Shown here piece by piece: positions 11,451 to 27,188 of a stretch of DNA of 64,000 nucleotides. Source of the stretch: an uncultured Bacilli bacterium. Its GTDB lineage: Bacteria > Bacillota_I > Bacilli_A > RF39 > UBA660. The first letter of the stretch is position 1. Every line of letters starts with the position of its first letter. Location: positions 11,554-75,553 of the forward strand of contig CAKOQD010000002.1 in the NCBI GenBank assembly GCA_934101185.1, in the 5' to 3' direction. Under the pieces are notes generated by a model. That model did no database searches, was not told the DNA's origin, and worked only from the letters and a program-made list of their open reading frames with translations. The translations under genes and the position numbers were made by a program.

Positions 11451-12638
11451 ATGAAAAAAATTTTCATAACAATATTGCTTGTTTTAATACCACTAAATGT
11501 ACAAGCAATAAATAATCAAACAACATTTAGTGAAACAAAACTATGCAAATACTATAAAGAAACCAAAGTATTTACAAACTACACAATCGAAGGAGAAAAC
11601 CCCAAAGAATATCCATTCAAAAGCAATGAACAAATTATAAAAAAATATGAAACAGAAATAAAACCAGAAGAAAAACCAAATAGAATAATACAAGAAGAAA
11701 CATATAATAACTATAATCCAATAAAAAAAATAAATAGAATAGTAACAAGATACGATATGGTTGGACTAGTCTATGAATTAGAAATCTATGAAAAAGATCA
11801 AAAACTAGACTATACACTATCATCAAACAATGATAACCAATATAAACATATAAATGACAATCAACTAAATCTATATGATAAAATAAATCTCAATTTTATA
11901 GATATCAATCTATCCCACGAAGTAGATCCATTAGATATAACTATAAAAATATACTTACGTAGATATTTTGATACTTTAGACATTTATACATACTTATTTC
12001 CAAAAGAATACACAAAAAAATTTAACATTATAGAAATAAAAAAAGAATATGATTACATAAATAATAGTAAAAAGATAACATTCGAAGATGATTACGAAGT
12101 AAGACCATATGAGATAAAAATAACACAAGAAGACATAAAAACATATAAATATAGCGATGAAATAATAACAACACAAGAAGAATTAGAAACACCACTATAT
12201 AACAAACTACCAAGTGCTAAAAAATATAAATATCAAGATACACTATTTAAATACTACAAAATAGAAAAAGAATACCAAGAAGGATACCATAAAACACTCG
12301 ATGGATACATAAAAGATGAAACAAAATGTATTAGTTCGTTCTCAGAACAAAAAAATAATATATTTGAAAAAATACCAGTAACAAAAAAGTTGCAAGCAAG
12401 TATCAAAGTAGACGCCAAAGAAGAAAAAACAGATACAAATACAAAAGAAATAACCAATACTAGTAATCTATTAGTATACAAAAAACAAATAAATACTAAA
12501 AAAGAAAATAATTTGTCGTACAAAGAATCAAAGAAAAAAACAAAAACCAACAAAATATTATACATACTCCCTGTTATAATCTTAAGCATAATATTCCTAT
12601 TAGGATATTTACTATATAACTTATTAAAGGAGAGATAA
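11451..12638 (+). CDS. Hypothetical exported protein with N-terminal signal sequence and C-terminal TM anchor
   Basis: MKKIFITILLVLIPLNVQA signal-like N-terminus, C-terminal ILYILPVIILSIIFLLGYLLY. RBS gagaggtga. No family recognised. Confidence 0.55.
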   Translation: MKKIFITILLVLIPLNVQAINNQTTFSETKLCKYYKETKVFTNYTIEGENPKEYPFKSNEQIIKKYETEIKPEEKPNRIIQEETYNNYNPIKKINRIVTRYDMVGLVYELEIYEKDQKLDYTLSSNNDNQYKHINDNQLNLYDKINLNFIDINLSHEVDPLDITIKIYLRRYFDTLDIYTYLFPKEYTKKFNIIEIKKEYDYINNSKKITFEDDYEVRPYEIKITQEDIKTYKYSDEIITTQEELETPLYNKLPSAKKYKYQDTLFKYYKIEKEYQEGYHKTLDGYIKDETKCISSFSEQKNNIFEKIPVTKKLQASIKVDAKEEKTDTNTKEITNTSNLLVYKKQINTKKENNLSYKESKKKTKTNKILYILPVIILSIIFLLGYLLYNLLKER

Positions 12639-12639
12639 A

Positions 12640-12975
12640 ATGTATAACATTGATATGGAATTTGTAAAAGGCATATTCATCATAAGACTAAGTGGAATAT
12701 TCAACAAAAATGCTTGCAACCAATTAGAACAAGATCTAGAACAATTAATAATAAAAAATGGTATAAAATATTTACTAATTAACCTAGAAAGCATTAAAAA
12801 AATAGATGCAAAAGCAATAGAAATAATCTTTGATAACTATATGAAACTGATAAAAAGAAATGGAAAACTAATAATATGTGGAATAAATAATCTATTTGAA
12901 AACAATAACATAATAACAAACAATCTATTACAAATAAAAGAAGAACAAGAAGTATTTGATTATGTAACACTATGA
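12640..12975 (+). CDS. spoIIAA: STAS-domain anti-sigma-factor antagonist (SpoIIAA-like) lacking the phosphorylatable Ser
   Basis: 111 aa. Aligns by eye with B. subtilis SpoIIAA; LNLEDLSFMDSSG corresponds to INLESIKKIDAKA here. Lies in the spoIIA-spoVA synteny. Confidence 0.65.
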   Translation: MYNIDMEFVKGIFIIRLSGIFNKNACNQLEQDLEQLIIKNGIKYLLINLESIKKIDAKAIEIIFDNYMKLIKRNGKLIICGINNLFENNNIITNNLLQIKEEQEVFDYVTL

Positions 12976-13616
12976 TAGATTTAAATGAATTAATAATACA
13001 AAATGAACCACTAATTTATTCCGTTATAAATAGATACAAAGAATATTTTGACATTGAAGACCTGTATCAAACCGCCGCAATTGGACTAATAAATGCCTAT
13101 AAAAACTATAAAAATGATAAACAAACCAAATTCTCATCATATGCCTATTTCTACATGAAAGGAGAAGTAAAAAAATATATAAGAGAAAGCAATACACTAA
13201 AAATAAGTAAAGAACTAATAAAACTAAACACATGTATAACAAAAGCTAAAGAAATTCTATATCAAAAACTAAATAGAGAACCAACTGATTTTGAATTATC
13301 ACTATTCTTAGAAATAGATGAAAGCCAAATAGCAAATGCTAAACTAGCCACATCATTAGTAGAATCTCTAGATAACGACATTGATGATGATTTATACAAC
13401 AAAATAGGATACATCCAAAAAGAATACGAAGGAGAAATACTAGATCTAAAAACAGAAATAAATAATCTGAAAGAACTAGAAAAACAAATAATAATATCAA
13501 GATATGAAGAAGGTTTAACTCAACAAGAAGTATCAAAACTATTAGGAATAAATCAAACTAAAGTATCAAGAGAAGAAACAAAAATATTACAAAAATTAAG
13601 AGATAGGTTGACATAA
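12972..13616 (+). CDS. sigF: Sigma-70 family sporulation sigma factor, divergent SigF-like
   Basis: 214 aa. Regions 2 (YQTAAIGLINAYKNY) and 4 (LTQQEVSKLLGINQTKVSR). Its start overlaps the STAS stop codon (ATGA). Followed by spoVAC/AD/AE. Confidence 0.65.
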   Translation: MIDLNELIIQNEPLIYSVINRYKEYFDIEDLYQTAAIGLINAYKNYKNDKQTKFSSYAYFYMKGEVKKYIRESNTLKISKELIKLNTCITKAKEILYQKLNREPTDFELSLFLEIDESQIANAKLATSLVESLDNDIDDDLYNKIGYIQKEYEGEILDLKTEINNLKELEKQIIISRYEEGLTQQEVSKLLGINQTKVSREETKILQKLRDRLT

Positions 13617-13669
13617 CCTATTTTTTGTATGAAAAAATATAAAAAAACCATAATAAAAATGGTGATAAA

Positions 13670-14113
13670 ATGAAACAAGAAAACTATGAAAAAATAGTAA
13701 AAACAAATCTACCAGATGAAAATAAACTGTCCAATGCCTTAATAGCTTTCTCAGTTGGAGGACTAATCGGAGCATTCGGGAACTTCCTAATAGAAATATA
13801 TTCATATCTATTTGAAATATCAAGAAACGACTCAGCAGTATTTATGATTATAACCCTCATCTTTATTGCATGCCTCTTAACAGCCATCGGAGTATTTGAT
13901 ACCTTTGTAAAAACAGGAAGAATGGGTCTTATAATACCAATAACAGGATTCGCACACTCTATGCAAAGTGCAATACTAGACTATAAAAACGAAGGTTTAA
14001 TCTATGGATTTGGTTCAAACATCTTTAAATTAGCGGGCTCAGTAATTCTATATGGAGTAGTATCATCATACTTCTTTGCTCTTATAAGATTCCTACTAGG
14101 AGTCGCCCTATGA
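13670..14113 (+). CDS. spoVAC: Stage V sporulation protein AC
   Basis: 147 aa. NALIAFSVGGLIGAFGN and a 4-TM pattern typical of SpoVAC. Confidence 0.88.
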   Translation: MKQENYEKIVKTNLPDENKLSNALIAFSVGGLIGAFGNFLIEIYSYLFEISRNDSAVFMIITLIFIACLLTAIGVFDTFVKTGRMGLIIPITGFAHSMQSAILDYKNEGLIYGFGSNIFKLAGSVILYGVVSSYFFALIRFLLGVAL

Positions 14114-15105
14114 CATTTGAATTTAATAACGTATACATAAAAAACACCTCAACAATATCAGGACCAATCGAAGCAAAAGGACCACTAAATAAATACTTTG
14201 ATAAGACTTATAAAGACTTTTATATAAATAGTAAATCATTAGAAAAATCAGAAGTAAACCTTCAAAAAGAAAGCATAGAAACTCTAATAGATAAAGAAAA
14301 TATTACAAAAGAACAAATAGATATATTAATATCCGGAGACTTACAAAATCAAATAACAGCATCATCATATGCAGCAAAAGACTATGAAATACCATTCATC
14401 GGAGTCTATAGTGCCTGTGCAACATCAACACAGTCAATAATACTTGCATCAACTATTCTAGAAAGCAAAAAAGCAAAAAACATTATATGTACAACAAGTT
14501 CAAATAACCTAGTATCAGAAAAACAATTTAGAAATCCAGTAGAATATGGTGCACCAAGTCCTAAAACAAAAACATTCACATCAACCGGAGGAGCATCAAT
14601 ACTATTAACAAATGAAAAAACAAATATAAAAATAACATCTGGTACAATAGGAAAAATAATAGATCTAAACCAAAATGATCCAAACCATATGGGAGCAGTA
14701 ATGGCACCAGCTGCCGCAGATACAATATATAATCATTTAAAAAACAACAATGAAAAAGTAAGCGATTATGATCTAATCCTAACCGGAGACCTAGGAATAT
14801 ATGGAAAAAAGATACTAAAAGAATACATGGACCAAAAATACAAGATAAAACTAGGGGAGAACTATGATGACTGTGGAACAATGCTATATGACATAAAAAA
14901 CCAAAAAGAAATAACCGCTGGGGGATCAGGACCAGTCTGTAGTGCCTTAGTAACCTATGGATACATATACAACGAAATGAAAAATAAAAATCTAAAAAAA
15001 GTTTTATTCGTAGCAACCGGTGCACTATTCTCACCAACATTCATATATCAAAAACAAAACATTCTATCAATTGCCCATGCAATAACAATGGAGGTGGTAA
15101 AATGA
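14110..15105 (+). CDS. spoVAD: Stage V sporulation protein AD
   Basis: 331 aa thiolase-like fold. STISGPIEAKGPL near the N-terminus. Translationally coupled to its neighbours. Confidence 0.88.
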   Translation: MTFEFNNVYIKNTSTISGPIEAKGPLNKYFDKTYKDFYINSKSLEKSEVNLQKESIETLIDKENITKEQIDILISGDLQNQITASSYAAKDYEIPFIGVYSACATSTQSIILASTILESKKAKNIICTTSSNNLVSEKQFRNPVEYGAPSPKTKTFTSTGGASILLTNEKTNIKITSGTIGKIIDLNQNDPNHMGAVMAPAAADTIYNHLKNNNEKVSDYDLILTGDLGIYGKKILKEYMDQKYKIKLGENYDDCGTMLYDIKNQKEITAGGSGPVCSALVTYGYIYNEMKNKNLKKVLFVATGALFSPTFIYQKQNILSIAHAITMEVVK

Positions 15106-15452
15106 GTTATATAACATCATTTCTATTCGTAGGGATACTATCTCTAATAGCACAATTAATATTAGATAAAACCAAACTATCCGCAGGACACATTACCAGC
15201 ATGTTCGTAGTAATAGGCTCATTCCTAGACACATTTAGTATATATGATAAAATAATACAACATGTTGGCGGAGGGGCACTAGTACCAATAACAAGCTTTG
15301 GTCATTTACTAATACATGGCGCACTAGAAAGAACCAATCAATCCGGTGCAACAGGTATCTTAATGGGAATGTTTGACCTTACTGCAACAGGAATAACAAG
15401 CGCAATTATCTTTAGTTTTGTATTTGCACTTATATTTAAACCAAGAAACTAA
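15102..15452 (+). CDS. spoVAE: Stage V sporulation protein AE (AEB-type)
   Basis: 116-aa membrane protein, FLFVGILSLIAQLILDKTKLSAGHI. Confidence 0.85.
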   Translation: MSYITSFLFVGILSLIAQLILDKTKLSAGHITSMFVVIGSFLDTFSIYDKIIQHVGGGALVPITSFGHLLIHGALERTNQSGATGILMGMFDLTATGITSAIIFSFVFALIFKPRN

Positions 15453-16904: not shown

Positions 16905-16991
16905 GCCTGCGTGGCGGAATTGGTAGACGCGCTGGACTCAAAATCCAGTGGTAGCAATATCGTGTGGGTTCGAGTCCCACCGCAGGCACCA
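16905..16991 (+). tRNA. tRNA-Leu, anticodon CAA, with encoded CCA
   Basis: Hand-folded cloverleaf. Acceptor gcctgcg/cgcaggc, D-arm gcgg-aattggtaga-cgc, anticodon stem ctgga/tccag with loop ctCAAaa, long variable arm, T-arm gtggg-ttcgagt-cccac, discriminator A plus CCA. Confidence 0.9.
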
Positions 16992-17002
16992 TTGACGAAT
17001 CT

Positions 17003-17057
17003 GTTCGAACTATTCGAACTTTGATATATATAATCAATCGAAAGATTGGTTTTTTTC
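17003..17057 (+). terminator. Two stem-loops downstream of tRNA-Leu, the second with a T-run
   Basis: gttcgaa-cta-ttcgaac hairpin, then atcaatc-gaaa-gattggt followed by T7. Confidence 0.55.
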
Positions 17058-17094
17058 TGTTTTCAGGAAGAAATCATAGGAAAGGTTGGTGTCT

Positions 17095-17370
17095 ATGATT
17101 AATGTAATCAAAAAAGAAATTGATATGGAGAAATCTTTAAAGAAACGATTAGAGATTATATGTGATTTTTGTAATACTACTCCAACTATTATAAATGGTA
17201 GTATTCGTAAAATTGATAAGACAAATTTGAATTATATCGAACCACATAGAATAATTATCAATAACATAATGTTTCTTGCTTTTAATTATTCTAATGAAAT
17301 CTATATCAATAATTTAAGCAAAAAGATTAAAATATCAGAACTTGAAAACTACATAAAAACTATGAACTAA
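17095..17370 (+). CDS. Small orphan protein, island paralog family A (copy 1)
   Basis: 91 aa. RBS aggaaagg. 65 of 90 residues identical (hand alignment, no gaps) to the ORF at 19220..19492. Confidence 0.6.
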   Translation: MINVIKKEIDMEKSLKKRLEIICDFCNTTPTIINGSIRKIDKTNLNYIEPHRIIINNIMFLAFNYSNEIYINNLSKKIKISELENYIKTMN

Positions 17371-17704
17371 TACTTATTCCCTACAAATAGGTAATAGACA
17401 AAATAAGAAAAATGTTGTATTATGTAATTGATTTACAAAGACTTATTTTGAGAAGTAAAAGTATTAGTTTGTAGTACCCTTACTTCTCTTTTTTTGAAAA
17501 TTAGAAAAAGGGAGATGATAATTAATGTATGATGATGTAAAGAAGATACTTTTAACGAATTAAAAGATAAATACAATTTTAGCAAAGAACACGATGATAA
17601 AGGAAAAGATGATTTTAAGATAGAAATTTAATTAAAAATGTTGATTTTATTAAAAAAATAATGTATAATAGTAAGTCCTTAACAGATTGGGGGGGAAATT
17701 TATC

Positions 17705-19012
17705 ATGTTAAAAGAAAAAAAATCAGTGTTTTTGATTTATGATAAAAAAATAGCACCACGTTTCAATAAGTTATTATCTGAAAATTTAGAAATTGAAACT
17801 GAACTTGAAGATTATGGATGTAATAAACTTGTTTCAGTTTCGGTTGAAGATTATCAAAGAGCTTTAGAGGAAGGTCTCAACATTTCAAATCTAAATCATT
17901 GGGATATGAGTTGGGTAAATGCTTATAAAGAGCCAAGACCAGTTGGATATATTAATGTAATGTATAGTAGTTTACCAAAAACAAGAGAAGCCAGTTCTTT
18001 ATGGGAATCATTTGAATTACCTGATCATTGTCCTATTGATATTAAAGAATATATTGAGAAATTACAAGCATTTTTAGGTGGACGCCCTATAAAAATTAAA
18101 TACAATAGTTCTGATAATGCAATAGAGTTTTTAGTTAAAGGTTCATTAGAAGATTATGAACTTGTAAAACAACAATGTGAAGGATTTAATTATGTTATGA
18201 AAAATTCACCTTTTATTAAAACTACATTTTTAGAAAAAGATGGAACTTTAATTAGAACTGAAAAAGAAGAGAAAAAAGAAGAATCAAGCCTTAAATCTTA
18301 TTTTAATGAATCTATGTTTGTGGATGGTTTATTAAGACCAGAAGGTTCTAATATTGCACCAAAAACAGATACTGACCAAGATTTAACAACAGGTTATAAA
18401 TATAATAGTTGTAGATTTGGTGCTAGAGATTTTGATATCAGTTCTGTTGGGATTTATGATTTGACAGAAAGTATTCAAGGAACATTCCTTATTTATGAAG
18501 AAAAAGATTATAATCACTATTGGAATAATGAAAAAGATGAACAAACGAGTTGTAAATCAATAATGCCTTTCACTATGCTAGATAATGGTAGTTTTGAAAG
18601 TAAAGTTACTATTCAAGATGGAGAAACAGTAGTAGTAAACACAAGTGTAAATGTTATTAGAAATATAGTCGGTTGTAATTTTGATGGTAAGAGTGTAAGA
18701 GATGGATTGTTTTCTGGACTTGCACATGAAGATTGTAGAGGTAATTTTGAATTAAACGAATATTATAAAACAATTTCTAATAGAACAAGATTACTTCATT
18801 ATTCTAAATCTTCTGGTTTCTTTGAGGTGTATGAATTGCCTAATGGATGGGTTGTTGAAGATGGAATCTCAAAGTTAGAATATCCAAAGGTATTTGATGA
18901 TGTAGATTTTGATAAGCAAGATAAGGATCTAGAAGAAATTAATGGTATTTTAGCATCACGAACTAATAGCAAAATTATGTCTTTAGTTAAAAGAATTGAT
19001 AATAGCAAGTAA
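17705..19012 (+). CDS. Orphan 435-aa protein, no recognisable domain
   Basis: Long uninterrupted ORF with island-type codon usage. ATG at 17705 is 9 nt after a G7 tract that acts as the Shine-Dalgarno. Strong terminator follows. Confidence 0.7.
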   Translation: MLKEKKSVFLIYDKKIAPRFNKLLSENLEIETELEDYGCNKLVSVSVEDYQRALEEGLNISNLNHWDMSWVNAYKEPRPVGYINVMYSSLPKTREASSLWESFELPDHCPIDIKEYIEKLQAFLGGRPIKIKYNSSDNAIEFLVKGSLEDYELVKQQCEGFNYVMKNSPFIKTTFLEKDGTLIRTEKEEKKEESSLKSYFNESMFVDGLLRPEGSNIAPKTDTDQDLTTGYKYNSCRFGARDFDISSVGIYDLTESIQGTFLIYEEKDYNHYWNNEKDEQTSCKSIMPFTMLDNGSFESKVTIQDGETVVVNTSVNVIRNIVGCNFDGKSVRDGLFSGLAHEDCRGNFELNEYYKTISNRTRLLHYSKSSGFFEVYELPNGWVVEDGISKLEYPKVFDDVDFDKQDKDLEEINGILASRTNSKIMSLVKRIDNSK

Positions 19013-19032
19013 AAATTTGCTATTATTTTTTT
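19002..19032 (+). terminator. Intrinsic terminator after the 435-aa orphan
   Basis: atagcaa / ttgctat stem overlapping the stop codon, followed by a T-run. Confidence 0.7.
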
Positions 19033-19040
19033 AAATTTTA

Positions 19041-19190
19041 TGGTAATATATATTTAGTGATTGATTCTTATATCAATCGTTGCGGTAAAAAGTTGTAGAT
19101 AACTACGACAATGGCACCATTGGGAAATCTGCTCGAACTATTCGAACTTTAAATATATGAATCAATCAGAAATGATTGATTTTTTCGTTT
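19041..19190 (+). repeat. tRNA-acceptor-end-like element, copy 2 (promoter, hairpin, minihelix ending GGCACCA, hairpin, terminator)
   Basis: TGgTAATAT extended -10. gattgat-tcttat-atcaatc hairpin. gttgtag-ataa-ctacgac hairpin then aatGGCACCA (19113-19119). Downstream is alignable by eye to the region after tRNA-Leu. Confidence 0.6.
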
Positions 19191-19219
19191 CTTGAAAAAA
19201 TCATAGAAAGGATTTGTCT

Positions 19220-19492
19220 ATGGTAAATATTATTAAAGAAGAAATTGAAATTGAAGAATCTTTAGAATCGAGGTTAAGAGTAATATGTGATTTTTGTAAT
19301 ACTACTCCAACAATAATAAATGGTAGTATTAGAAGAATTGATAAAACTAATTTAACTTATATTGAACCACATAGAATATATATTAAAAACAATTTATATC
19401 TAGCATTTAATTATTCAAGTGATATATATGTTAATAATTTAGGTAAAAAGATTAAATTATCTGAATTAGAAGATTATATAAAATGTTTATAA
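19220..19492 (+). CDS. Small orphan protein, island paralog family A (copy 2)
   Basis: 90 aa. RBS agaaagga. Shares the invariant core ICDFCNTTPTIINGSIR-IDKTNL-YIEPHRI with 17095..17370. Confidence 0.6.
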   Translation: MVNIIKEEIEIEESLESRLRVICDFCNTTPTIINGSIRRIDKTNLTYIEPHRIYIKNNLYLAFNYSSDIYVNNLGKKIKLSELEDYIKCL

Positions 19493-19498
19493 AATACC

Positions 19499-19526
19499 TT
19501 GATTTTTAGAATTAATAGTATATAAT
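19499..19526 (+). promoter_or_regulatory. Sigma-A type promoter upstream of the recombinase-remnant leader
   Basis: TTGATT, 16 nt, TATAAT. Confidence 0.45.
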
Positions 19527-19575
19527 AAATAACCAATAAATGAGGAAGGTATCTTCTAGAAATGGAGGTACATCA

Positions 19576-19656
19576 ATGATAAGACAGAATATACATTTAT
19601 TAAAAATATTTATTATTGAATTAACTAGAGAGCGAGAGGTATTAGCTTGGATTTAA
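19576..19656 (+). CDS. Possible 26-aa leader peptide overlapping a terminator stem
   Basis: RBS aatggagg 7 nt before the ATG. The ORF runs into the 5' arm and loop of the 19627-19677 terminator. Confidence 0.3.
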   Translation: MIRQNIHLLKIFIIELTREREVLAWI

Positions 19657-19677
19657 TATCTTTTGCTCTCTTTTTTC
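19627..19677 (+). terminator. Strand-specific 17-bp stem-loop plus T-run (attenuator-like)
   Basis: agagagcgagaggtatt pairs fully with aatatcttttgctctct only if three G-U pairs are allowed, so as + strand RNA only. Followed by T5. Confidence 0.6.
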
Positions 19678-19699
19678 GTATTAAAAGGAGGAATATGTT

Positions 19700-20212
19700 A
19701 TGAATGAAGAAAAGAAAATAGCGGGTTTATATACGTGTATTAACGGAAGATCAGGCACGAGAAGGATTTAGTTTACCAGAACAAGAAAAGCGTTTAAGGA
19801 CTATGATGAGTTAAAAAAGAATTATAATAAACAAAGACAAAAAATAAATAAACTTAATAATCAGACAAAGGACTTAAATACAAAATCAGAAGAAATAAAA
19901 GATATTATTAATAATTTAAAAAATGAGAATTCTATATTAAAAGAAAAGAATAAAACTCTTCAAAATGAACTAAATAATCTAAAAGAATTATTTGAAAAAA
20001 TTAAAAATAAAATTAACAATCTATATCACTTCTTTGTAGATAAAATGTGGGGTAATAAAGAAAAATGTGATAAATATTATCCAGTTGCTTATGAATTATA
20101 TGGTAAGAATATTTTAGAAGAAGAACAAATAAGAGGTATATTAGGAACTAAAAATAGATTTGCAGAAATAGATAGAGATTCTAAATCAAAAGACGATGAT
20201 TTTGAATTATAA
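19700..20212 (+). pseudogene. Remnant of a large serine recombinase: frameshifted N-terminus with mutated catalytic Ser, internal deletion, C-terminal coiled-coil fragment
   Basis: Frame 0 gives MNEEKKIAG... then a stop at 19769. The +1 frame gives YIRVLTEDQAREGFSLPEQEKRLR (Y-x-R-V-S-T-x-x-Q motif with Ser replaced by Leu) then a stop at 19812. Frame 0 resumes as a start-less Asn/Lys/Leu-rich coiled-coil ending at 20212. Confidence 0.7.
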
Positions 20213-20249
20213 AAAAAGAGGAATAATATCCTCATAGTTAAATATAAGA

Positions 20250-20483
20250 TTATTCCTTAACATATCCAATGTTACTAGGTTTGCTTGGATCAAATGTTAA
20301 GTTGCAAATACTAGCAACAAGACCATAAATTCCAAAAGTAACAATTGTAAGGAAAAAATATGCTGCAGTTCTACTTCTATATCCTTCAGGTTTTAAATTA
20401 GTATGATTAATAATTATACTACCAATCCATCCTAAAAAGAATGTTAACAAAAATCTTACTACATTATTATTGTCTTTTTCCAT
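20250..20483 (-). CDS. Small two-TM membrane protein, TM2-domain-like
   Basis: 77 aa. FLLTFFLGWIGSIIINH and FFLTIVTFGIYGLVASI hydrophobic helices. Confidence 0.5.
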   Translation of the reverse strand: MEKDNNNVVRFLLTFFLGWIGSIIINHTNLKPEGYRSRTAAYFFLTIVTFGIYGLVASICNLTFDPSKPSNIGYVKE

Positions 20484-20555
20484 ATTACACTTACTCCTTC
20501 CAATTATAATTATACAATAAATTTTTATAAAAGTCTTTAATTAATGACAATTTTA

Positions 20556-20680
20556 TGATAATATTTATATAGATTGATTCATATGAATCGTTATTGCCGA
20601 AAAAAGTTGTAGACCTCTACGTCGTCGGCACCAGATTGATTGATAACTCGAACTTTTTATAGTTCGAGTTTTGATATATC
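20556..20680 (+). repeat. tRNA-acceptor-end-like element, copy 3
   Basis: TGaTAATAT extended -10. gattc-atat-gaatc hairpin. tgccga...tcggca stem enclosing the gttgtaga/tctacg hairpin and ending GGCACCA (20627-20633). Then a perfect 10-bp hairpin aactcgaact/agttcgagtt and TTTGATATAT. Confidence 0.6.
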
Positions 20681-20792
20681 TAAATTTATAATAAAATATT
20701 CATATAGATAAATTGAATTGAATCAATTTAGAAAACATACTTGCATAATGACTTAACCATTATGCAAATATATTGAAATATGGAGGAAATTT

Positions 20793-21323
20793 ATGAACGA
20801 AAAAATGTATTATTATTTATTAGAAAATAAACTATTAACGCATGGGATTGGAAATGTTAGTGACCAGGAAACATATTTTAAATTTGAATCAATAATCAAA
20901 AATGGTGGTCTAATGTCATTACAAAAATTAAAAGAATTAGGAATAAATGTATCTGGAAAAGTTAGTGGATTAAGAGATACACCTGAAAGTAGAATATCTT
21001 TTTTTAATCCATCCACCCCACAAATTAAAAAGAGATTATTATCAGAACACTTTTATTATTTTCTACCATTTAATCCTAACGTAATATTTTTTATAATTGA
21101 TGGAACAAATATTGATTTACAACAACATTCTGATATTTCTTTTGAAATAACTACAGAAAGTGGGTTTGTTTCTATTGATAATTTTAAAGGAATAATAGCT
21201 CCAAGCGAATGCATTGAATATATAAATAGTATTCAGAATAAGTATGGAATTTGTTTACCAATATATGATTTTGATTTTAATATGATGAATGATATAAATG
21301 ATAGTTTTAATAAATATAAATAA
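20793..21323 (+). CDS. Orphan 176-aa protein, possibly a distant paralog of 24904..25752
   Basis: RBS tggagga. Shares by eye the SIIKNGGL / EIVKNGLI block and the C-terminal ES-x-hydrophobic ... G-I-(I/L) block with the 282-aa ORF. Confidence 0.55.
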   Translation: MNEKMYYYLLENKLLTHGIGNVSDQETYFKFESIIKNGGLMSLQKLKELGINVSGKVSGLRDTPESRISFFNPSTPQIKKRLLSEHFYYFLPFNPNVIFFIIDGTNIDLQQHSDISFEITTESGFVSIDNFKGIIAPSECIEYINSIQNKYGICLPIYDFDFNMMNDINDSFNKYK

Positions 21324-21325
21324 TC

Positions 21326-21432
21326 AGAAGTTGTTCTACTTCTTCCTTTAGGGCACCATAGGAAAATTAGTCGAACTAATCGACTTTATATATGAAAGGT
21401 TAATCCTCGGTTAACCTTTCATATATGTTTTG
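21326..21432 (+). repeat. tRNA-acceptor-end-like element, copy 4, plus a 16-bp perfect-stem terminator
   Basis: agaagt-tgttct-acttct hairpin, tttagGGCACCA (21352-21358), agtcga-actaa-tcgact hairpin, TTATATATG, then atatatgaaaggttaa / ttaacctttcatatat stem. Confidence 0.6.
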
Positions 21433-21598
21433 AAAGAAGCTGATTAGTTATGCAAATAATAAAGGAAAAACTAGTATATATGAAACTGGTTTAATACGAA
21501 AATCTTCATATATTGCAATGGTTTTTAAAAAGAATAATAAAGAATAATATTGAAACACTAGATGAATTATTTAGATTAGACCCATTGCCATATGTAAT

Positions 21599-21627
21599 TT
21601 GCATTAAATATAAAATTGTGCTATAAT
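21599..21627 (+). promoter_or_regulatory. Sigma-A promoter with extended -10 driving the T-box leader
   Basis: TTGCAT, 17 nt, TGcTATAAT. Confidence 0.6.
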
Positions 21628-21633
21628 TTGTTC

Positions 21634-21892
21634 ATCGGCAATGACTAGGAATAGTAATTTTATAATTTATTTTAGAGAGTTATCGGTTGGTGAAAGATAA
21701 TATAAATTAAAAATGAAAGACACCTATGAGCTACTTGTTTGAAATTAATAGTAGAATAAGTCGGATGTAAACCGTTATCTCATTGAGTGATTATATATTT
21801 AATTTCTGTTTACATATATAATAAATTGGGTGGTACCGCGGATTATAACAGTTATTCGTCCCTTTGTGGATAATATAACTGTTTTTTATTAT
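21634..21892 (+). promoter_or_regulatory. T-box riboswitch leader, probable Asp (GAC) specifier
   Basis: AGAGAG bulge and GGTTGGTGAAAG distal loop in stem I. GAA-A-GAC-A in the specifier-loop position (GAC at 21719-21721). T-box sequence AATTGGGTGGTACCGCG (about 21824-21840). Terminator aacagttat...ataactgtt followed by T6. Confidence 0.8.
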
Positions 21893-21914
21893 ATATTGAA
21901 TAGGAGGAAGAAAA

Positions 21915-23228
21915 ATGAAAAAAATATATTTTAAAAATTTAAATGAATATTTTGGACAAGAAATAACTATTGAAGGTTTTGTCGATAATATTCGTGATTT
22001 ACAATATGTTCAATTTTTAATTGTTAGAGACACTACAGGTAAGGTTCAAGTAACAATTGAAAAAAACGAAAATAATAGTAAATTAAATGAAATTGTTTCT
22101 AATTTAGCAATTGAAAGCACGGTTAAAATTATTGGAACATTATTTAAAAATGAGAAAGTTAAACTTAATGGAATGGAGCTAATACCAAACGATATATTTG
22201 TAACTAGTAAATGTTTGGAGGAATTACCTTTAAACTATAAAGATAGCAAGTCCGCACTATTGGATACTAGATTAAATTATAGATTTTTAGATTTAAGAAG
22301 TGAAAAAAATATTCTTATGTTTAAAGTTCAAACTTGTATGATTAATGCTATGAGAGAATTTGTTATAAAAAATAATTTTACAGAGATCCACACTCCTAAA
22401 ATTATTAGTGTAGCAAGTGAATCTGGCGCAGAAGTTTTTGAAGTAAAATACTTTGATAGAAAAGCATATTTAGCACAAAGTCCTCAATTTTATAAACAAA
22501 TGGCTATGTGTAGTGGTTTTGAAAAGGTATTTGAAATTGCACCAGCATTCAGAGCAGAAAACTCTAATTCATATAGACACACTACAGACTTTACATCATT
22601 CGATATTGAGATGAGTTATATCGAATCTTTAGAAGAACTTATGGATTTTGAAGAAGATTTATTTATTGCGGGGTTATCCGCAGTTAAAGAAAAATATGGG
22701 GAACAAATCAAAGAATTATTTAATGTAGATGTTATTATTCCTACTAAACCATTCCCAAGAATTAAGTTAGAAGAATTATATAAGGAATTAGAAAAAGAAT
22801 ATGATTTTAAAATGAATTATGAAGATGTTGGAGATATGAATGCAGAATCAGAGAGATTAGCATCTAAGTATGTTATGGAAAAATATGGGCATGAGTTTGT
22901 ATTTATAACAGACTTTAGTGCTAAAAAAAGAGCGTTCTATCATAAGAGAGAAAAAGGTATTCCACAAGGGGCTGACCTTATTTGGAAAGGCTGTGAAACA
23001 ACTACTTTAGCATTAAGAGAACATAACTATGAAACTTTATGTGAACAAGCTAAAGAAAAGGGATTAGGAGAAGATGTTAAGTTTTATCTTGAATTCTTTA
23101 AATATGGTTGTCCCCCTCATGGAGGATTTGCTCTTGGAGTAGATAGAATAACTATGCTATTATTAGAAACAGGTTCTTTAAAAGAAACAATGTTTATATT
23201 TAGAGGTCCTAGTAGAATAGAACCATAA
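21915..23228 (+). CDS. aspS: Aspartyl-tRNA synthetase, short archaeal/eukaryal-like type (AspRS2)
   Basis: 437 aa. OB-fold N-terminus. Class IIb motifs FRAENSNSYRHTTDFTSFDIEM and PPHGGFALGVDR. C-terminal FRGPSRIEP resembles the archaeal-type FPRD-x-x-R-L-x-P tail. The T-box specifier GAC agrees. Confidence 0.8.
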   Translation: MKKIYFKNLNEYFGQEITIEGFVDNIRDLQYVQFLIVRDTTGKVQVTIEKNENNSKLNEIVSNLAIESTVKIIGTLFKNEKVKLNGMELIPNDIFVTSKCLEELPLNYKDSKSALLDTRLNYRFLDLRSEKNILMFKVQTCMINAMREFVIKNNFTEIHTPKIISVASESGAEVFEVKYFDRKAYLAQSPQFYKQMAMCSGFEKVFEIAPAFRAENSNSYRHTTDFTSFDIEMSYIESLEELMDFEEDLFIAGLSAVKEKYGEQIKELFNVDVIIPTKPFPRIKLEELYKELEKEYDFKMNYEDVGDMNAESERLASKYVMEKYGHEFVFITDFSAKKRAFYHKREKGIPQGADLIWKGCETTTLALREHNYETLCEQAKEKGLGEDVKFYLEFFKYGCPPHGGFALGVDRITMLLLETGSLKETMFIFRGPSRIEP

Positions 23229-23232
23229 AATT

Positions 23233-23254
23233 AAGGGGACAAAATCCTCTTTTT
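23233..23254 (+). terminator. Terminator after aspS
   Basis: aagggga / tcctctt stem (one G-U pair) followed by a T-run. Confidence 0.5.
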
Positions 23255-23255
23255 G

Positions 23256-23408
23256 TGTTATAATTGTATTAGTTGATAGTTATTACTAACTATTTCTTTT
23301 GCTCTAGAAGTTGTTCTACTTCTTCCATTAGAGTACCAGTTTAAAAATAAACTCGGACTTTTAAAGTTCCGAGAGTAATAAATTACTAACAGAAATGTTA
23401 GTTTTTTT
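23256..23408 (+). repeat. tRNA-acceptor-end-like element, copy 5
   Basis: TGtTATAAT extended -10. gctcta...tagagt stem enclosing agaagt-tgttct-acttct and ending AGTACCA (23332-23338). ctcgga/tccgag hairpin. ctaaca-gaaa-tgttag followed by T7. Confidence 0.6.
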
Positions 23409-23508
23409 GCTGTTTAAAAGAAAATGAAAAATTATATGTTAGCAATAGAAATAAAAATAGTAATTTATTAAGATTAATGATATGATTTAATAAACAAGGA
23501 GGTTACAA

Positions 23509-24822
23509 ATGAAAAATTTAAATAGTGAATTACTTAATAAATTTGACAATTTATATAAAAAAGATAAAAATAATAAAATAATAGAAAATGCAATTAAAAA
23601 TGTAGGTATCAATAAAGTTTGCTTAAACAATGAAATAGTTAACAAAACAATAAATATTTTTAATATAGAACTGCCAAAATCAAAAATATATAATCAAGAA
23701 GAATCAGAACGCTGTTGGATACATGCAGGTATAAATTTAATAAAAAATAATATTGCTAAAAACCTTAACATTGAAGAAAGTGAATATGCTTTATCTGTAA
23801 ACTTTTTAGCTTTTCTAGATAAGATGGAAAAATCTAATACTATTTATAACAGAATTATAGAAAATAATAATTTTAACTATGAAGAAGAAATTAAAAAAGA
23901 ATATTTAAAATTTGGTATATACGAAGGTGGATATTTTGAGTATTTTAAAGCACTAGTAAATAAATATGGAATTGTTCCAGAAAATGTTATGCCGGATGTT
24001 GAATGCAGTAAGAAATCTGAAGAATTAACCAAAATTCTTAGTGATAAAGTAAAAAAAGATATATTAAAACTAATTAAATTAAAAAAAGAAAAATGTAATA
24101 ATTTAGACGTTATAAAAGAAGAAATGCTAACAGAAAACTATAATATGTTAGCAAAATGTTTAGGAGAGCTACCTTTTAATTTTGATTATGAATATAAAAC
24201 TAAAGATGGAAAATATAAAAAAATCACTAATATAACTCCTAAAGAATTCTCAAACAATTATCTCACTATTAACTTAAATGATTTTATTGGTGTTGCTAAT
24301 GTACCAATGTACAACAAAGAATATAATAAGCTATATAGAAAAGAGCATACTGAAAATGTATATGAAAATAGTTATGTTGAATTCATTAATTTACCAATTG
24401 AAAATTTAAAAGATTTAGCGATTAAACAATTAAAAGATGGGGTTCCTGTATGCTTAGGTTGTGATATGAAAAAAATGCGAGCAGATAAATTAGGAATAAT
24501 GGATTCTAATTTATACAATTATAAAGATACATTTAATATTGAGCTATTATCCAAAGAAGAAGCATTATCCATACATGATATCGATTTTCAACATGTAATG
24601 TTAATTACTGGAGTTCATATTGAAGATGACAAAGCAGTTAGATGGAAAATTGAAGACAGTTATGGTGATAAAGTTCATAAAGATGGTTATTATATAATGA
24701 ATGATAACTTCTTTGATGATTTTGTAATAGAAGTCATAATTGATAAGAAACACTTAAGCCAAGATCAATTAGATATATTAAGCCAAGATCCAATTTTATT
24801 TGATGTAACTGAACCATTCTAA
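23509..24822 (+). CDS. pepC: Aminopeptidase C (C1B bleomycin-hydrolase family cysteine peptidase)
   Basis: 437 aa. Active-site context QEESERCWIHAGINL and a conserved C-terminal region. Confidence 0.8.
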   Translation: MKNLNSELLNKFDNLYKKDKNNKIIENAIKNVGINKVCLNNEIVNKTINIFNIELPKSKIYNQEESERCWIHAGINLIKNNIAKNLNIEESEYALSVNFLAFLDKMEKSNTIYNRIIENNNFNYEEEIKKEYLKFGIYEGGYFEYFKALVNKYGIVPENVMPDVECSKKSEELTKILSDKVKKDILKLIKLKKEKCNNLDVIKEEMLTENYNMLAKCLGELPFNFDYEYKTKDGKYKKITNITPKEFSNNYLTINLNDFIGVANVPMYNKEYNKLYRKEHTENVYENSYVEFINLPIENLKDLAIKQLKDGVPVCLGCDMKKMRADKLGIMDSNLYNYKDTFNIELLSKEEALSIHDIDFQHVMLITGVHIEDDKAVRWKIEDSYGDKVHKDGYYIMNDNFFDDFVIEVIIDKKHLSQDQLDILSQDPILFDVTEPF

Positions 24823-24903
24823 CAAAAAACTTAGTAAAGAACATTACCATTTAACACTAAAAATAAAAATGATATAATAGTTGCAAGATGTAGGAGGCTA
24901 ATT

Positions 24904-25752
24904 ATGAATAAAAATGATTACATAGAAATAACAGAAGAAAAATTAAAAGACAATTCTAAAAAGATTATGATAAATCAAATAAATAAATATTACAAATCAA
25001 AAGAATATGTAAATCCCAAATGTAAATATTCTGTTGGAGACAATGTAGTTTTAAAAAAAGGAACATTATTACATGGAACATATAAAAATATTGATGGATT
25101 AAAAGAAATTGTAAAGAATGGATTAATATCAAGTTGGTTTATAAATGATAGATTATCAAAATATCCAAGTTCTGTTGGTGTATGGAAATTAAAAAAAGAT
25201 TCCTTACTAAAAGACTATATAAATTTTTATTCTGGAGGCACTATTTTATATAGTGGTATTATTGAAAATGGTATAGACACACAAAAAAATAAGACCTCAG
25301 TTATTCCATATGATGAAATGCATAATATTATTGATATTACAAGCAGTATTAATTGTCATATGTGGACTCTAGAACAAACAAAAGAAGCAAGATTTATGCC
25401 TAGTTTTGTTCAAGATAGAATTCAAATAGGTATTATATTTAATGGAGACAATAACTACACAAAAGAATTACTGAAGGGCGACATATTAGAACCTGATTTT
25501 ATTGATGATGAAAATGTTAAGAATTTCGTTAATTCAAATTACTACGACAAATTTTTAAAAGATAGAAAAAACAAAGACGATTTCTTTACTGATCGAGAAA
25601 GTGCTATTTTATTTGGGTTACCATCGAACTTAATCGAAGGAATACTAGTTGGAAGAATATATGAAAAAGATGACTTAATTTTAAAAGAAATAAAAGAATT
25701 ATTACCAAAATGTTATATATGTAACCTAGATGGAAAAATAATAAAAGAATAA
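24904..25752 (+). CDS. Orphan 282-aa protein with weak ADP-ribosyltransferase-like motifs
   Basis: RBS taggaggc. LLHGTYKNIDGLKEIVKNGLIS near the N-terminal third and DRESAILFGLPSNLIEGILVG near the C-terminus. No firm family assignment. Confidence 0.55.
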   Translation: MNKNDYIEITEEKLKDNSKKIMINQINKYYKSKEYVNPKCKYSVGDNVVLKKGTLLHGTYKNIDGLKEIVKNGLISSWFINDRLSKYPSSVGVWKLKKDSLLKDYINFYSGGTILYSGIIENGIDTQKNKTSVIPYDEMHNIIDITSSINCHMWTLEQTKEARFMPSFVQDRIQIGIIFNGDNNYTKELLKGDILEPDFIDDENVKNFVNSNYYDKFLKDRKNKDDFFTDRESAILFGLPSNLIEGILVGRIYEKDDLILKEIKELLPKCYICNLDGKIIKE

Positions 25753-25789
25753 AAAACGTAAGATATGGAATTTTTTAGATGGTGATAAA

Positions 25790-26350
25790 ATGAAAAAACA
25801 TGTAAAAGTAATGTTTGGAACAACAAGCGGTGCAAAAAACAATTTTAATTATAAAATAGGTGAAGTAAATATCAGTGATAATTGGAATCCTAATGCTAGT
25901 ACTGGAAAAGAATTTGGAGGTTTTAATTATTGTAGTGAAGACTGTATTTTAAGATGGTTGCACAGGGGAGATACTATATATGATGTAGAAATTCCTAAAG
26001 ATGCTGAAAACATTAAAATAGAAGGTGCTACAACACTCTATAGAACTAATAAAATCATTATACAAAATCCAAAAAAGATAGATGATGAGTTAGCACTTCA
26101 TTTCTATAAAATATCAAAAATACCAGAAAAATCCTATTATATATCACTAGCAGTTGTCTCACTAATGAACTACAAAAAAACTGCATATCAGATATTGAAA
26201 GATAAAGTTAACAAAGAAAATATTGATTCAGTACTAGAAGATTGGAACGATTTTATGTGGCACAAAGGTAAAAATGATAGAAGAAATAAAAATGAACTAA
26301 TAAAAAAAATAGAAGATGAGTTATATAAAATAAAAAACATTAAGCTATAA
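25790..26350 (+). CDS. Orphan 186-aa protein
   Basis: RBS gatggtga. The block GGFNYCSEDCILRWLHRGDTIYDVEIP resembles a domain common in phage and island hypothetical proteins. Function unknown. Confidence 0.55.
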   Translation: MKKHVKVMFGTTSGAKNNFNYKIGEVNISDNWNPNASTGKEFGGFNYCSEDCILRWLHRGDTIYDVEIPKDAENIKIEGATTLYRTNKIIIQNPKKIDDELALHFYKISKIPEKSYYISLAVVSLMNYKKTAYQILKDKVNKENIDSVLEDWNDFMWHKGKNDRRNKNELIKKIEDELYKIKNIKL

Positions 26351-26603
26351 AAAATTAATAAAAATAAAAAAGACAATATAAAATCATCTTTTTTTACACA
26401 AATATACTTACAAACATCTATTGTTTTTATATTATTAGTCATTAACTTTTAACTAAGTATATACAAATTAAATCTAAAAATATCACTAAAAATCATAAAA
26501 ATATTCAATGAATTTATATCTTTCTTGTCTTTGTACCTAACACAAAAAGCAACTATTAACATTAAAAGAATAACATGATATAATGAAAACGGAGGAAACG
26601 ATT

Positions 26604-27188
26604 ATGATTATAGGTATATGTGGTAATTCCGGAAGTGGCAAGACTACTTTAGCCAATCAAATAATAAAATCAACAGACAATAAAGCAATACATCTAGAAA
26701 TAGATAAAATTGGTCATAAAGTTTTATTGCTTCCTGAAGTAAAAAAAGAATTGATAAAACTATATGGAAACAAAATACTAAGTGAAAGCGATATCGATAG
26801 AAAAAAACTAAGCACAATAGTTTTTGATTCTAAAATAGAAATGGATAAACTAACTGATATTACATGGAAATATATGCAAATAGAAATTGACAACTTTCTA
26901 GAAAATAATAAAAATAAAATAGTAATCTTAGATTGGATGTTATTATCAAAATCAAAATATTTTGACATGTGTGATATAAAAATACTTTTAAATACACCAT
27001 ACGATATAAGAAAAAGAAGAGCAACAAGAAGAGATAACATAAGTGAAGAATCATTTAACTTAAGAGATCAGGCTAGTATAACTTACAATGAAGAGAACTT
27101 TGATTATGTTTTAAAAACTAATGAAATTGACAAGAAAAAGCTAGTAAAGTCTCTGTACAAAAGTCGAAAACAAAGGAAAAATAAATGA
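26604..27188 (+). CDS. coaE: Dephospho-CoA kinase-like P-loop kinase
   Basis: IIGICGNSGSGKTTLA P-loop. The layout after it resembles CoaE (IDRKKLSTIVFDS). ATG at 26604 follows the RBS ggagg. Confidence 0.6.
   Translation: MIIGICGNSGSGKTTLANQIIKSTDNKAIHLEIDKIGHKVLLLPEVKKELIKLYGNKILSESDIDRKKLSTIVFDSKIEMDKLTDITWKYMQIEIDNFLENNKNKIVILDWMLLSKSKYFDMCDIKILLNTPYDIRKRRATRRDNISEESFNLRDQASITYNEENFDYVLKTNEIDKKKLVKSLYKSRKQRKNK

Follow-up and report, generated by a model that had tools for sequence, protein, structure and literature searches.

The stretch of DNA analysed here, called the window throughout, comprises 64,000 nucleotides (positions 11,554 to 75,553 of contig CAKOQD010000002.1, assembly GCA_934101185.1) of an uncultured, spore-forming gut bacterium of the class Bacilli, and is 26% GC. 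A gene for tRNA-Leu(CAA) lies on the forward strand immediately 3' of scpA-scpB, as identified by ARAGORN and by the Rfam tRNA model (63 bits). It is followed by an island in which, from ~17000 to ~26000, the GC skew is +0.2 to +0.3 and the AT skew is low. Four small gene modules of this island are bounded by five copies of a composite motif, the first of which includes the 3' end of the tRNA gene itself. Judged by comparison of sequences, the five copies are very probably the attachment (att) sites of small integrative mobilizable elements that carry a large serine recombinase (LSR) and whose insertion point is exactly the CCA encoded at the 3' end of tRNA genes. In what follows, the tRNA side of a site is called the B arm, the left end of an element the P' arm, and the right end of an element the P arm.

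The five copies were described in an original prediction made from the letters of the window, and all are present where it placed them (Table 1). Each has a hairpin followed by RGYACCA (GGCACCA four times and AGTACCA once), and a second hairpin with a TCGAAC or CTCGG core is found 11-14 nt past the ACCA. The element TT(T)RATATAT is present in copies 1-4, as predicted, and the stem-loop with a T-run that had been assigned to copies 1, 2, 4 and 5 was found in copies 1, 2 and 5, the stem-loop of copy 4 (21398-21424) having no real T-run. The heptamer RGYACCA alone is weak evidence, given that it occurs 37 times in the window where 11.6 occurrences are expected. An nhmmer profile was built on 42 copies of the motif, none of which came from the window or from its species. 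In the window this profile matches only the five sites, with 62.0, 50.8, 37.1, 35.2 and 22.9 bits (E-values of 2e-18 to 4e-6 for 64 kb); the next-best match scores 3.5 bits, and the maximum in 10 shuffled windows is 9 bits. A scan of relatives with an nhmmer profile of the non-tRNA copies, covering 80 species-level genome loci, gave matches only 3' of tRNA-Leu(CAA) and on the same strand. The scan of relatives had been proposed with the original prediction, together with the caution that the motif might turn out to be a generic, genome-wide terminator or repetitive extragenic palindromic (REP)-like repeat, and no such distribution was found. The loose pattern GGCACCA-N10-14-TCGAACT was also tried, and picked out more than 120 viral loci; these were rejected as chance matches, lacking both the small protein p9x described below and any profile match at E<=0.01 over their 1.07 Mb, and they serve as a negative control.

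Comparison of strains demonstrates that the sites are the borders of what comes and goes. Ten metagenome contigs encode a ScpB identical to that of the window, and these were compared with it by BLAST. The contig L001 is collinear with the window to the ACCA of the tRNA (16991) and resumes at 20627, with the two alignments overlapping by exactly the 7 bp GGCACCA. L001 therefore has neither module 1 nor module 2, and the right arm of copy 3 follows its tRNA directly, at a junction where 7 bp of identity lie between otherwise unrelated arms. In L002 the order is tRNA, module 2 from 19113, the left arm of copy 3, GGTACCA, and then the backbone gene found at 27185 in the window, such that modules 1, 3 and 4 and the whole stretch from pepC to the coaE-like gene are absent. 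A right arm of 100 nt (TTAAAGATTTATTCGAACTAGAAATAGTCCGTTTTTT..., L002 9430-9535) precedes the YbaK-like gene in this strain and is absent from the window. Three contigs (L003, L005 and L007) have a different module 1' with a 132-aa gene, closed by a stem peculiar to it (GATATAAG...CTTGTATC), after which come GCACCA and the arm of module 2, and three others (L004, L008 and L009) have the same arrangement as the window. The placement of the sites between gene modules, as originally claimed, is thereby strengthened, and the suggested comparison of tRNA-Leu loci across strains gave a clear answer: whole modules come and go, with breakpoints exactly on GGCACCA. Several contigs, both from the window's species and from related species, stop exactly at the 3' end of the tRNA, which is the behaviour expected of an assembler at a polymorphic junction. 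The right arms and the aspartyl-tRNA synthetase (AspRS) cargo of module 4 are far more alike between species than is ScpB, and on sequence comparison the elements appear to be horizontally transferred.

Intact elements with the same sites were found in related genomes and metagenomes. Complete elements, from attL to attR, are 5.4-6.2 kb in length. They encode p9x, an LSR (638-662 aa) and a Mob_Pre relaxase (~460-476 aa), together with one to three cargo proteins, examples of which are a NUDIX hydrolase, an AAA+ ATPase and a protein with a DnaJ domain. At the locus L144, 6.2 kb from the tRNA to the distal copy hold tRNA-Leu, a 91-aa p9x (p91), a 599-aa LSR, a Mob_Pre relaxase and a distal GGCACCA copy. 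The LSRs of L144 and of L213 (648 aa) match both PF00239 and PF07508; in L144 these are the Resolvase and Recombinase domains, and a CxxC...CxxC zinc ribbon is visible in the sequence. The same p9x-LSR pair is present in L170 and L199. A metagenome scan with a p9x alignment gave 80 further loci, most of which have p9x followed by an LSR that is 41-56% identical to that of L144. At least 10 of these 80 loci have a P arm in place of a tRNA ahead of the p9x element, as at a tandem junction. The relaxase domain (PF01076) was found in all four complete elements in which the corresponding open reading frame (ORF) was scanned (L144, L213, L241 and L272), the ORFs at this place in L288 and L232 having been left out, and no genes for a conjugation pore of the type IV secretion system fit within 5.4-6.2 kb. 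The original suggestion that integrative elements accreted in tandem at one tRNA, leaving att sites, is thus supported both by the polymorphism of the modules and by the existence of intact, integrase-bearing elements. The recombinase family, the decayed state of the elements in the window and the use of tRNA genes other than tRNA-Leu go beyond that suggestion.

The LSR has no close relative among PLSDB plasmids or GenBank phages, where the closest identity is at most 33%, and its matches to the NCBIfam models for CcrB, XisF, CcrC and CcrA are partial and far below the cut-offs. The p9x proteins are 91-94 aa in length and form 4,519 clusters in a protein collection, the few named ones being called hypothetical. 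No Pfam domain was found among the clusters listed and no NCBIfam family matched; no homologue was found in GenBank phages or PLSDB plasmids, and an AF2 model with a pLDDT of 80.6 had no fold match in the PDB at E<0.4. From its position, p9x may be a recombination directionality factor (RDF) or a regulator. Between p9x and the LSR lies a leader of ~200 nt, which ends in a strong terminator hairpin with a T-run directly 5' of the ribosome-binding site (RBS) of the LSR gene. Such leaders were seen in modules 1 and 2 of the window, in L213 (10283-10520), in L144 (11572-11780) and in L241, L272 and L288. The stem of the hairpin varies in sequence among elements, and an upstream CAATAAATGA box is found in module 2, L213 and L144. 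The leader is not in Rfam, and from its sequence it looks like an attenuation control of integrase expression. It was also observed that three contigs of sample ERZ773108 (L218, L245 and L285) have the same coverage, 154-160x, and that each has a p9x-LSR element; the equal coverage suggests several copies per genome at different tRNA genes.

The anatomy of the sites was derived from consensus sequences. For attL (60 unique sites) the consensus is ...GGTTCGAtTCc-N-GCaCCA followed by ttgacgAATCTGTTCGAACTtTT..., and for the P type (49 unique copies) it is aaAaaGTTGTAGAtatCTtc..caa..GCaCCA. The T-loop GTTCGA and the TCGAAC of the right arm are mirror images about the first C of CCA; within the window, 16968-16973 is mirrored by 17005-17010 about a centre at 16989. 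Measured from this centre, the motif RGTTC starts at 24 nt in B arms (52 of 60), at 23 nt in reverse-complemented P' arms (48 of 60) and at 28-29 nt in P arms (40 of 49). It has been published that the motif recognised by the zinc ribbon of large serine integrases is shifted by 4-5 bp between half-sites of the attB type and of the attP type, and by this measure the B and P arms appear to follow the offset as expected. Since the P' arm looks attB-like, a tRNA end that is already occupied would still accept another element. At terminal attR sites the native right arms are a diverse set of terminators that have no motif in common, such that most of the information that defines the target seems to reside in the tRNA half.

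A single integrase is not confined to one tRNA gene. The P' arm begins directly after CCA, 5' of p9x-LSR, behind 15 different tRNA genes: Thr (ggt, cgt, agt), Leu (taa, gag, tag, caa), Gly (gcc, tcc, ccc), Arg (cct, tct, acg), Cys (gca) and Lys (ctt). A 100% identical LSR of 638 aa, with an identical P' arm, is found at Thr(ggt), Thr(cgt) and Leu(tag); a pair of 100% identical LSRs is found at Gly(gcc) and Gly(ccc), and a pair with 99.4% identity at Arg(acg) and Lys(ctt). The tRNA genes that share one LSR have in common RGTTCRAKTCY-N9-GCACCA, which is the T-loop together with the 3' end. Over all 15 tRNA genes, the common features are reduced to (G)C-N-CCA and the T-loop. The direct repeats of attL and attR are only 5-8 bp, (G)C(A/T)CCA, with a core of 7 bp (GGCACCA) in the window, and the shortest shared cores are CACCA at tRNA-Arg(cct) and CTCCA at tRNA-Gly(ccc). 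Given that only CCA is common to all sites, a 2-bp crossover would lie inside CCA.

A mechanism can be proposed on this basis, in which the LSR would be the catalyst. Copy 1 would be composed of the B arm of the tRNA (T-loop GTTCGA and the 3' strand of the acceptor), the core and the P' arm of an element, and in copies 2-5 the core would join the P arm of one element (AAAGTTGTAG... with (G)CACCA) to the left end of the module that follows. The LSR would bind at two motifs placed symmetrically about the first C of CCA, that of the T-loop and, in the right arm, its inverted copy TCGAAC. It would cut a dinucleotide within CCA and exchange strands. When a first element inserts at the CCA of a tRNA, its P' arm would replace the trailer of the tRNA and bring a new terminator-like hairpin. 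The same arm would bring an extended -10-like box, corresponding to TT(T)RATATAT, and a palindrome with a T-run ahead of p9x, and probably supplies the promoter and operator of p9x-LSR. With the occupied site still attB-like, a later element would enter at the tRNA end and push older elements downstream, giving accretion, and each such insertion would make an internal junction from the P arm of the new element, the core and the P' arm of the older one. If the tRNA site recombined with an internal junction, the modules between them would leave as one circle with a P-core-P' site. Removal or movement of blocks of modules in this way would reproduce the difference between L001 and the window. Excision and re-integration are supported indirectly, by the presence and absence of modules with breakpoints at the core, and by identical elements at different tRNA genes.

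Several observations weigh against the assignment of the five copies to an LSR of this kind. The outer motif of the P' arm is at the attB-type spacing, such that the canonical symmetric attP is not matched, and the covarying stems of the P arm, described below, are needed by no known serine-integrase mechanism. The window has no functional integrase, and any activity there must be historical or in trans. In copy 5 the CA of the other copies is replaced by TA, a difference that would be important for a crossover at that position; no p9x follows the right arm of copy 3 or that of copy 5, and these arms may be the native tRNA trailer or belong to another type of element. No att copy was found between 23410 and 27188, which leaves the far end of the island unmarked, and a search for terminal overlaps in complete contigs gave no circular contigs.

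The modules of the window can be compared with the intact elements part by part (Table 1). In module 1, p9x is followed by the leader, an LSR-type RBS and only ~12 codons, and the rest of the LSR is lost; its P' arm is 89% identical to that of module 2. Module 2 retains an N-terminal remnant of the LSR in which 24 of 27 residues are identical to those of intact LSRs (E = 9e-13), but the catalytic serine is mutated (RVSTEDQ to RVLTEDQ) and the frame is broken. The first 128 bp of module 4 (21352-21479, in copy 4) match the attL region of the intact L144 element at 88% identity, first p9x codons included. The left arm of copy 4 has no upstream part, because the 176-aa ORF of module 3 extends up to the copy. 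No LSR-like sequence was found elsewhere in the 64 kb, and no intact LSR or relaxase in the modules of the window. As all four modules are without an integrase, the array would be mobile only with an LSR supplied in trans. Four modules, five sites, vestiges of p9x and LSR, and the absence of an integrase or relaxase of its own fit a cis-mobilizable element (CIME) array formed by tandem accretion, and the island thus has the appearance of an ordinary stack of decayed mobilizable elements.

Table 1. Features of the island downstream of tRNA-Leu(CAA), in window coordinates.
Feature	Position	Strand	Content
Copy 1, left half	16905-16991	+	tRNA-Leu(CAA); T-loop GTTCGA 16968-16973 and 3' end GGCACCA 16985-16991; chromosomal B arm and core
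Copy 1, right arm	16992-17057	+	P' arm (left end) of module 1
Copy 1, TTCGAAC hairpin	17003-17019		inverted copy of the T-loop motif; probable tRNA terminator (terminator scan)
Copy 1, extended -10-like box	17020-17034		TTTGATATATATAAT
Copy 1, hairpin with T-run	17034-17049		terminator scan
Module 1	16992-19112	+	body 17086-19012; p9x, leader, 441-aa ORF; LSR lost
Module 1 p9x	17086-17370		94 aa; probable true start 17095
Module 1 leader terminator hairpin	~17449-17495		
Module 1 441-aa ORF	17687-19012		function unknown
Copy 2	19041-19190	+	module 1 P arm, core GGCACCA 19113-19119, module 2 P' arm; 62 bits
Copy 2, extended -10-like box	19041-19049		TGGTAATAT
Copy 2, hairpin 1	19059-19078		
Copy 2, X strand	19081-19086		
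Copy 2, hairpin 2	19092-19109		
Copy 2, Y strand	19110-19116		
Module 2	19120-20626		body 19214-20483; p9x, leader terminator, LSR remnant, 55-aa ORF, DUF4234-like ORF
Module 2 p9x	19214-19492		92 aa
Module 2 leader terminator	19627-19671		
Module 2 LSR remnant	19725-19805		27 aa, N-terminal
Module 2 DUF4234-like ORF	20250-20483	-	77 aa
Copy 3	20556-20672	+	module 2 P arm, core GGCACCA 20627-20633, right arm with CTCGAAC...GTTCGAG hairpin; 50.8 bits
Copy 3, -10-like box	20556-20564		TGATAATAT
Copy 3, hairpin 1	~20573-20589		
Copy 3, X strand	20595-20600		TGCCGA
Copy 3, hairpin 2	20606-20623		
Copy 3, Y strand	20625-20630		TCGGCA
Module 3 cargo, 176-aa ORF	20793-21323	+	sole ORF of module 3; function unknown
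Copy 4	21326-21495	+	truncated P arm 21326-21351, core GGCACCA 21352-21358, P' arm; 37.1 bits
Module 4 p91 stub	21451 (ATG)		p9x start; third p9x of the window
Module 4 T-box leader	21632-21866	+	Rfam T-box, 145.7 bits
Module 4 AspRS	21915-23228	+	non-discriminating; NCBIfam NF003483, 446.9 bits
Copy 5	23256-23410	+	P arm, variant core AGTACCA 23332-23338, right arm with CTCGGAC hairpin and terminator-like hairpin; 22.9 bits
Copy 5, -10-like box	23256-23264		TGTTATAAT
Copy 5, hairpin 1	~23275-23294		
Copy 5, X strand	23301-23306		GCTCTA
Copy 5, hairpin 2	23307-23322		
Copy 5, Y strand	23329-23334		TAGAGT
Distal variable region	23509-27188	+	PepC-like peptidase, 282-aa ORF, 186-aa ORF, CoaE-like kinase

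The P arm has a structure of its own. A -10-like box lies 75-83 nt 5' of the CCA end, with a TG extension in 26 of 48 copies, and is followed by hairpin 1, a strand X, an A-run, hairpin 2 and a strand Y that pairs with X and ends just before (A/T)CCA. The closure by X and Y resembles an acceptor stem, and the whole a minihelix of the tRNA acceptor and T-arm. Hairpin 1 is mostly GATTGAT...ATCAATC, with 92% of cells paired and with five of its six pairs changing on both sides somewhere; hairpin 2 is mostly conserved in sequence and is broken in several copies. The pairing of X with Y is stronger within a copy than between copies (-4.14 vs -2.82 kcal/mol), and none of 5000 permutations reaches the observed value, a test that is inflated because the copies are related by descent. 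Compensatory differences in X and Y are found between types (GCCGA/TCGGC, GCTCTA/TAGAGT and CCTAAA/TTTAGG) and also among close relatives (GCCAA/TTGGC vs GCCG/CGGC). Folds of single sequences have z-scores of -2.6 to -2.9. RNAalifold gave no consensus structure on a MAFFT alignment of 24 P arms; because the variable linker misaligns the X strand, a duplex test for each sequence and explicit counts of hairpin pairs were used instead. Copies 2-5 have no Rfam match even at E<=5 and nothing was found in them by ARAGORN, with only the genuine tRNA-Leu matching. The coding potential of the left arms was considered as well and was rejected: a frame is open in copies 2 and 3 and is lost in copies 4 and 5, there is a stop just upstream, and the substitutions are not biased to third positions.

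The palindrome ATCAATC/GATTGAT that precedes p9x (17032-17056 and 19161-19185) is found again, arranged the other way round, in hairpin 1 of the P arm (19059-19078 and 20573-20589). It changes together in both arms of one element, to TTAACCTT in L144 and to GTATCAATTTC in L285, and the motif shared by P and P' arms has a mean of 9.5 nt for arms of the same element and of 7.9 nt for arms of different elements, by what is a crude measure. Palindromes on both sides of the core suggest candidate sites for a common ligand, possibly p9x.

The structure of the P arm allows for an additional explanation, in which the arm is also a transcribed mimic of the tRNA acceptor and T-arm, with an NCCA end and an outward promoter, or a structure of single-stranded DNA, such as a lagging-strand origin (sso) used after MobV transfer. 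This is compatible with a role of the copies as att sites and adds a layer to it, in that the repeats would also be small genes for structured nucleic acids, and it is regarded as possible, with the odds clearly against it. The -10-like box, the covariation of X and Y with its compensatory changes, the pairing of hairpin 1 and the fold z-scores speak for it, as does the likeness of TTATTGCCGAAAAAAAGTT in copy 3 to the RSB motif TTATGCCGAGAAAATTT of ssoA origins. The null results of RNAalifold, Rfam and ARAGORN and the frequent breaks in hairpin 2 speak against it; descent inflates the permutation test, -10-like hexamers are common at 26% GC, and a BLAST search of plasmids with the copy 3 arm yielded nothing beyond noise and no support for an sso. 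A more far-reaching version can be stated, though it is doubtful and is held with somewhat less confidence still. The LSR would read the T-loop motif and the encoded CCA, so that essentially any tRNA gene that encodes CCA could be used, and the P arm, as a transcribed or single-strand-folded tRNA minihelix mimic with a promoter, would stand in for the tRNA upstream of p9x-LSR when the element is excised or in tandem. If true, the minihelix mimic would be a structured nucleic-acid component of a serine-integrase system, which is not known for that class of recombinase.

Explanations that replace the LSR altogether fare worse. An integron-like cassette system, with folded single-strand sites and a dedicated integrase at the tRNA, is very unlikely. 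Some modules are indeed small, lack an integrase and often have one gene (the 176-aa ORF of the window, and in L176 a homologue of its 186-aa ORF), and the sites that bound them are more conserved in structure than in sequence. No integrase of the IntI type and no attI were found in the window or the related loci, however, and the sites are linked to an LSR, a recombinase whose substrates are double-stranded. The vestiges of p9x, LSR or both in modules 1, 2 and 4 suggest decayed elements rather than modules born as cassettes.

The tRNA 3' end is a classic target of tyrosine integrases, and tandem arrays at tRNA genes are well known, such that the repeats could be displaced 3' fragments of tRNA in classical tyrosine-integrase islands. 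This too is highly improbable, given that only 5-8 bp are common with the tRNA and that the sequence left of the core is unrelated to the T-arm of tRNA-Leu. A scan of 10 element ORFs, which did not include p9x or several small ORFs, detected no domain of a tyrosine recombinase, and the LSR adjoins attL in most loci. The original prediction had noted that the hairpins preceding ACCA are not the T-arm of tRNA-Leu. For copies 2-5 this is correct, the hairpin there being element DNA from a right end, but in copy 1 the hairpin is the T-arm. The hairpins that are not T-arms are explained by an integrase that is a large serine recombinase and not a tyrosine integrase, with only a short core shared. 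A generic intergenic terminator or REP-like repeat, with the strain differences arising from homologous recombination or slippage, is just as improbable: the right arms do hold terminator-like hairpins, and copies 1 and 2 share ~400 bp at ~80% identity, but profile matches lie only 3' of tRNA genes on the tRNA strand and nowhere else in the window, the 80 genome loci or the 1.07 Mb control, the arms that meet at the L001 junction are unrelated except for 7 bp of identity, and identical arms are found behind many tRNA genes.

Read as att sites of LSR-carrying elements, the copies belong to a known kind of system, that of integrative mobilizable elements with an LSR that decay to cis-mobilizable elements and accrete in tandem. 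The features that would set this variant apart are insertion at the CCA end without disruption, several tRNA genes per enzyme, p9x, the attenuator-like leader and the structured, promoter-like P arm. No description of such an element family was found in the literature searched, a search that did not cover all journals, so that an earlier description is possible.

Among characterized elements, the clostridial Tn4451 and Tn4453 are alike in size (~6 kb) and in carrying an LSR (TnpX) with a MobV-type relaxase (TnpZ, Mob/Pre). The circular form of Tn4451 creates the promoter of tnpX at the joint, of which the outward -10 box of the P arm is reminiscent. Tn4451 differs in its low target specificity, in contrast to the CCA end of tRNA genes used by the p9x-LSR elements, and the latter differ in the conserved p9x and the attenuator-like leader, with no close relative of their LSR found. 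According to a review, the Tn4451 serine integrase performs both excision and integration without an RDF, and with very short identical cores (PMC5704250).

The ssrA islands of Dehalococcoides lie in tandem downstream of the tmRNA gene and use a CcrB-like serine recombinase, DsiB. They are similar in that the integration module adjoins attL, in that islands lacking an integrase are read as cis-mobilizable, and in having a conserved, non-matching motif left of the repeat. They are unlike in their single target gene, a 20-bp direct repeat, an insertion point within the T-loop, an additional small serine recombinase (DsiA), larger size and a different phylum, whereas the p9x-LSR elements have a crossover at CCA, a core of 5-8 bp and many tRNA genes as targets. 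The staphylococcal cassette chromosome (SCC) elements SCCmec and psi-SCC at rlmH also use LSRs (CcrAB or CcrC), accrete at the 3' end of one gene and include recombinase-less elements bounded by the same sites. They are unlike in having a protein-coding target, often two recombinases together, a much larger size and no relaxase. The sub-threshold NCBIfam likeness of the p9x-LSR recombinase is to the CcrB, CcrC and CcrA of this group.

In the accretion model for CIMEs, developed for ICESt1 and ICESt3 and for streptococcal integrative mobilizable elements, decayed elements likewise keep their att sites, the target is regenerated, and blocks can be mobilised in cis; the cases of the ICESt1/ICESt3 type are unlike in using tyrosine integrases. 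Streptococcal integrative mobilizable elements with serine integrases insert inside genes and disrupt them, and reviews describe such disruptive insertion for serine-integrase elements of this kind in general. Canonical LSR sites (LI/A118, SPbeta, Bxb1 and phiC31) are similar in having a short core, an imperfect dyad and an outer motif that is 4-5 bp nearer the centre in the attB type. Unlike these, only the element's left arm (P) is attP-spaced here, the right-hand arm (P') being attB-spaced; the chromosomal right half-site is apparently unconstrained, and one enzyme is found at several tRNA genes. Tyrosine integrases are generally seen as the enzymes that integrate at tRNA 3' ends, and tRNA goes unmentioned in a large survey of LSR attachment sites.

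What emerges is an abundant and unannotated family in gut Bacilli, in which a serine integrase would act at the CCA end and leave the tRNA undamaged, with the same enzyme at several tRNA genes. If it is true that the enzyme reads the T-loop and CCA, it would offer uncultured low-GC Firmicutes a naturally multi-site integrase, a candidate tool whose landing sites the genome already contains. For annotation, the island of the window can be described as a probable array of decayed mobilizable elements, with a cargo that includes a transferred, T-box-controlled, non-discriminating AspRS.

The T-box and AspRS of module 4 (21596-23274) are 96% identical in nucleotides, and 97% in protein, to L132 13020-14698. 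Given that the ScpB proteins are only 76% identical, this indicates a recent horizontal transfer of an aminoacyl-tRNA synthetase cassette. The T-box of this AspRS gene reads GGGTGGTACCGCG. No Pfam or NCBIfam family was found for the 441-aa, 176-aa and 282-aa ORFs (17687-19012, 20793-21323 and 24904-25752), the last having only a sub-threshold match to WH_MCM2. The nearest genome records are metagenome-assembled genomes (MAGs) labelled Bacilli, Tenericutes or 'Candidatus Onthousia'. Genes for a sigma-F-like factor and for SpoVA proteins (spoVAC/AD/AEB) lie 5' of scpAB at 12972-15452, from which the low-GC host is taken to be a spore-former, despite the Tenericutes or Mollicutes labels of several related MAGs. 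At the distal boundary of the variable region, the CoaE-like gene overlaps the start of the YbaK-like gene. A homologue with 50% identity to the product of the 186-aa ORF in this region (25790-26350) is present in L176 as a single-gene cassette between two att copies (12985-13808), and since the homologue is bounded in this way, the ORF of the window probably once had sites of its own.

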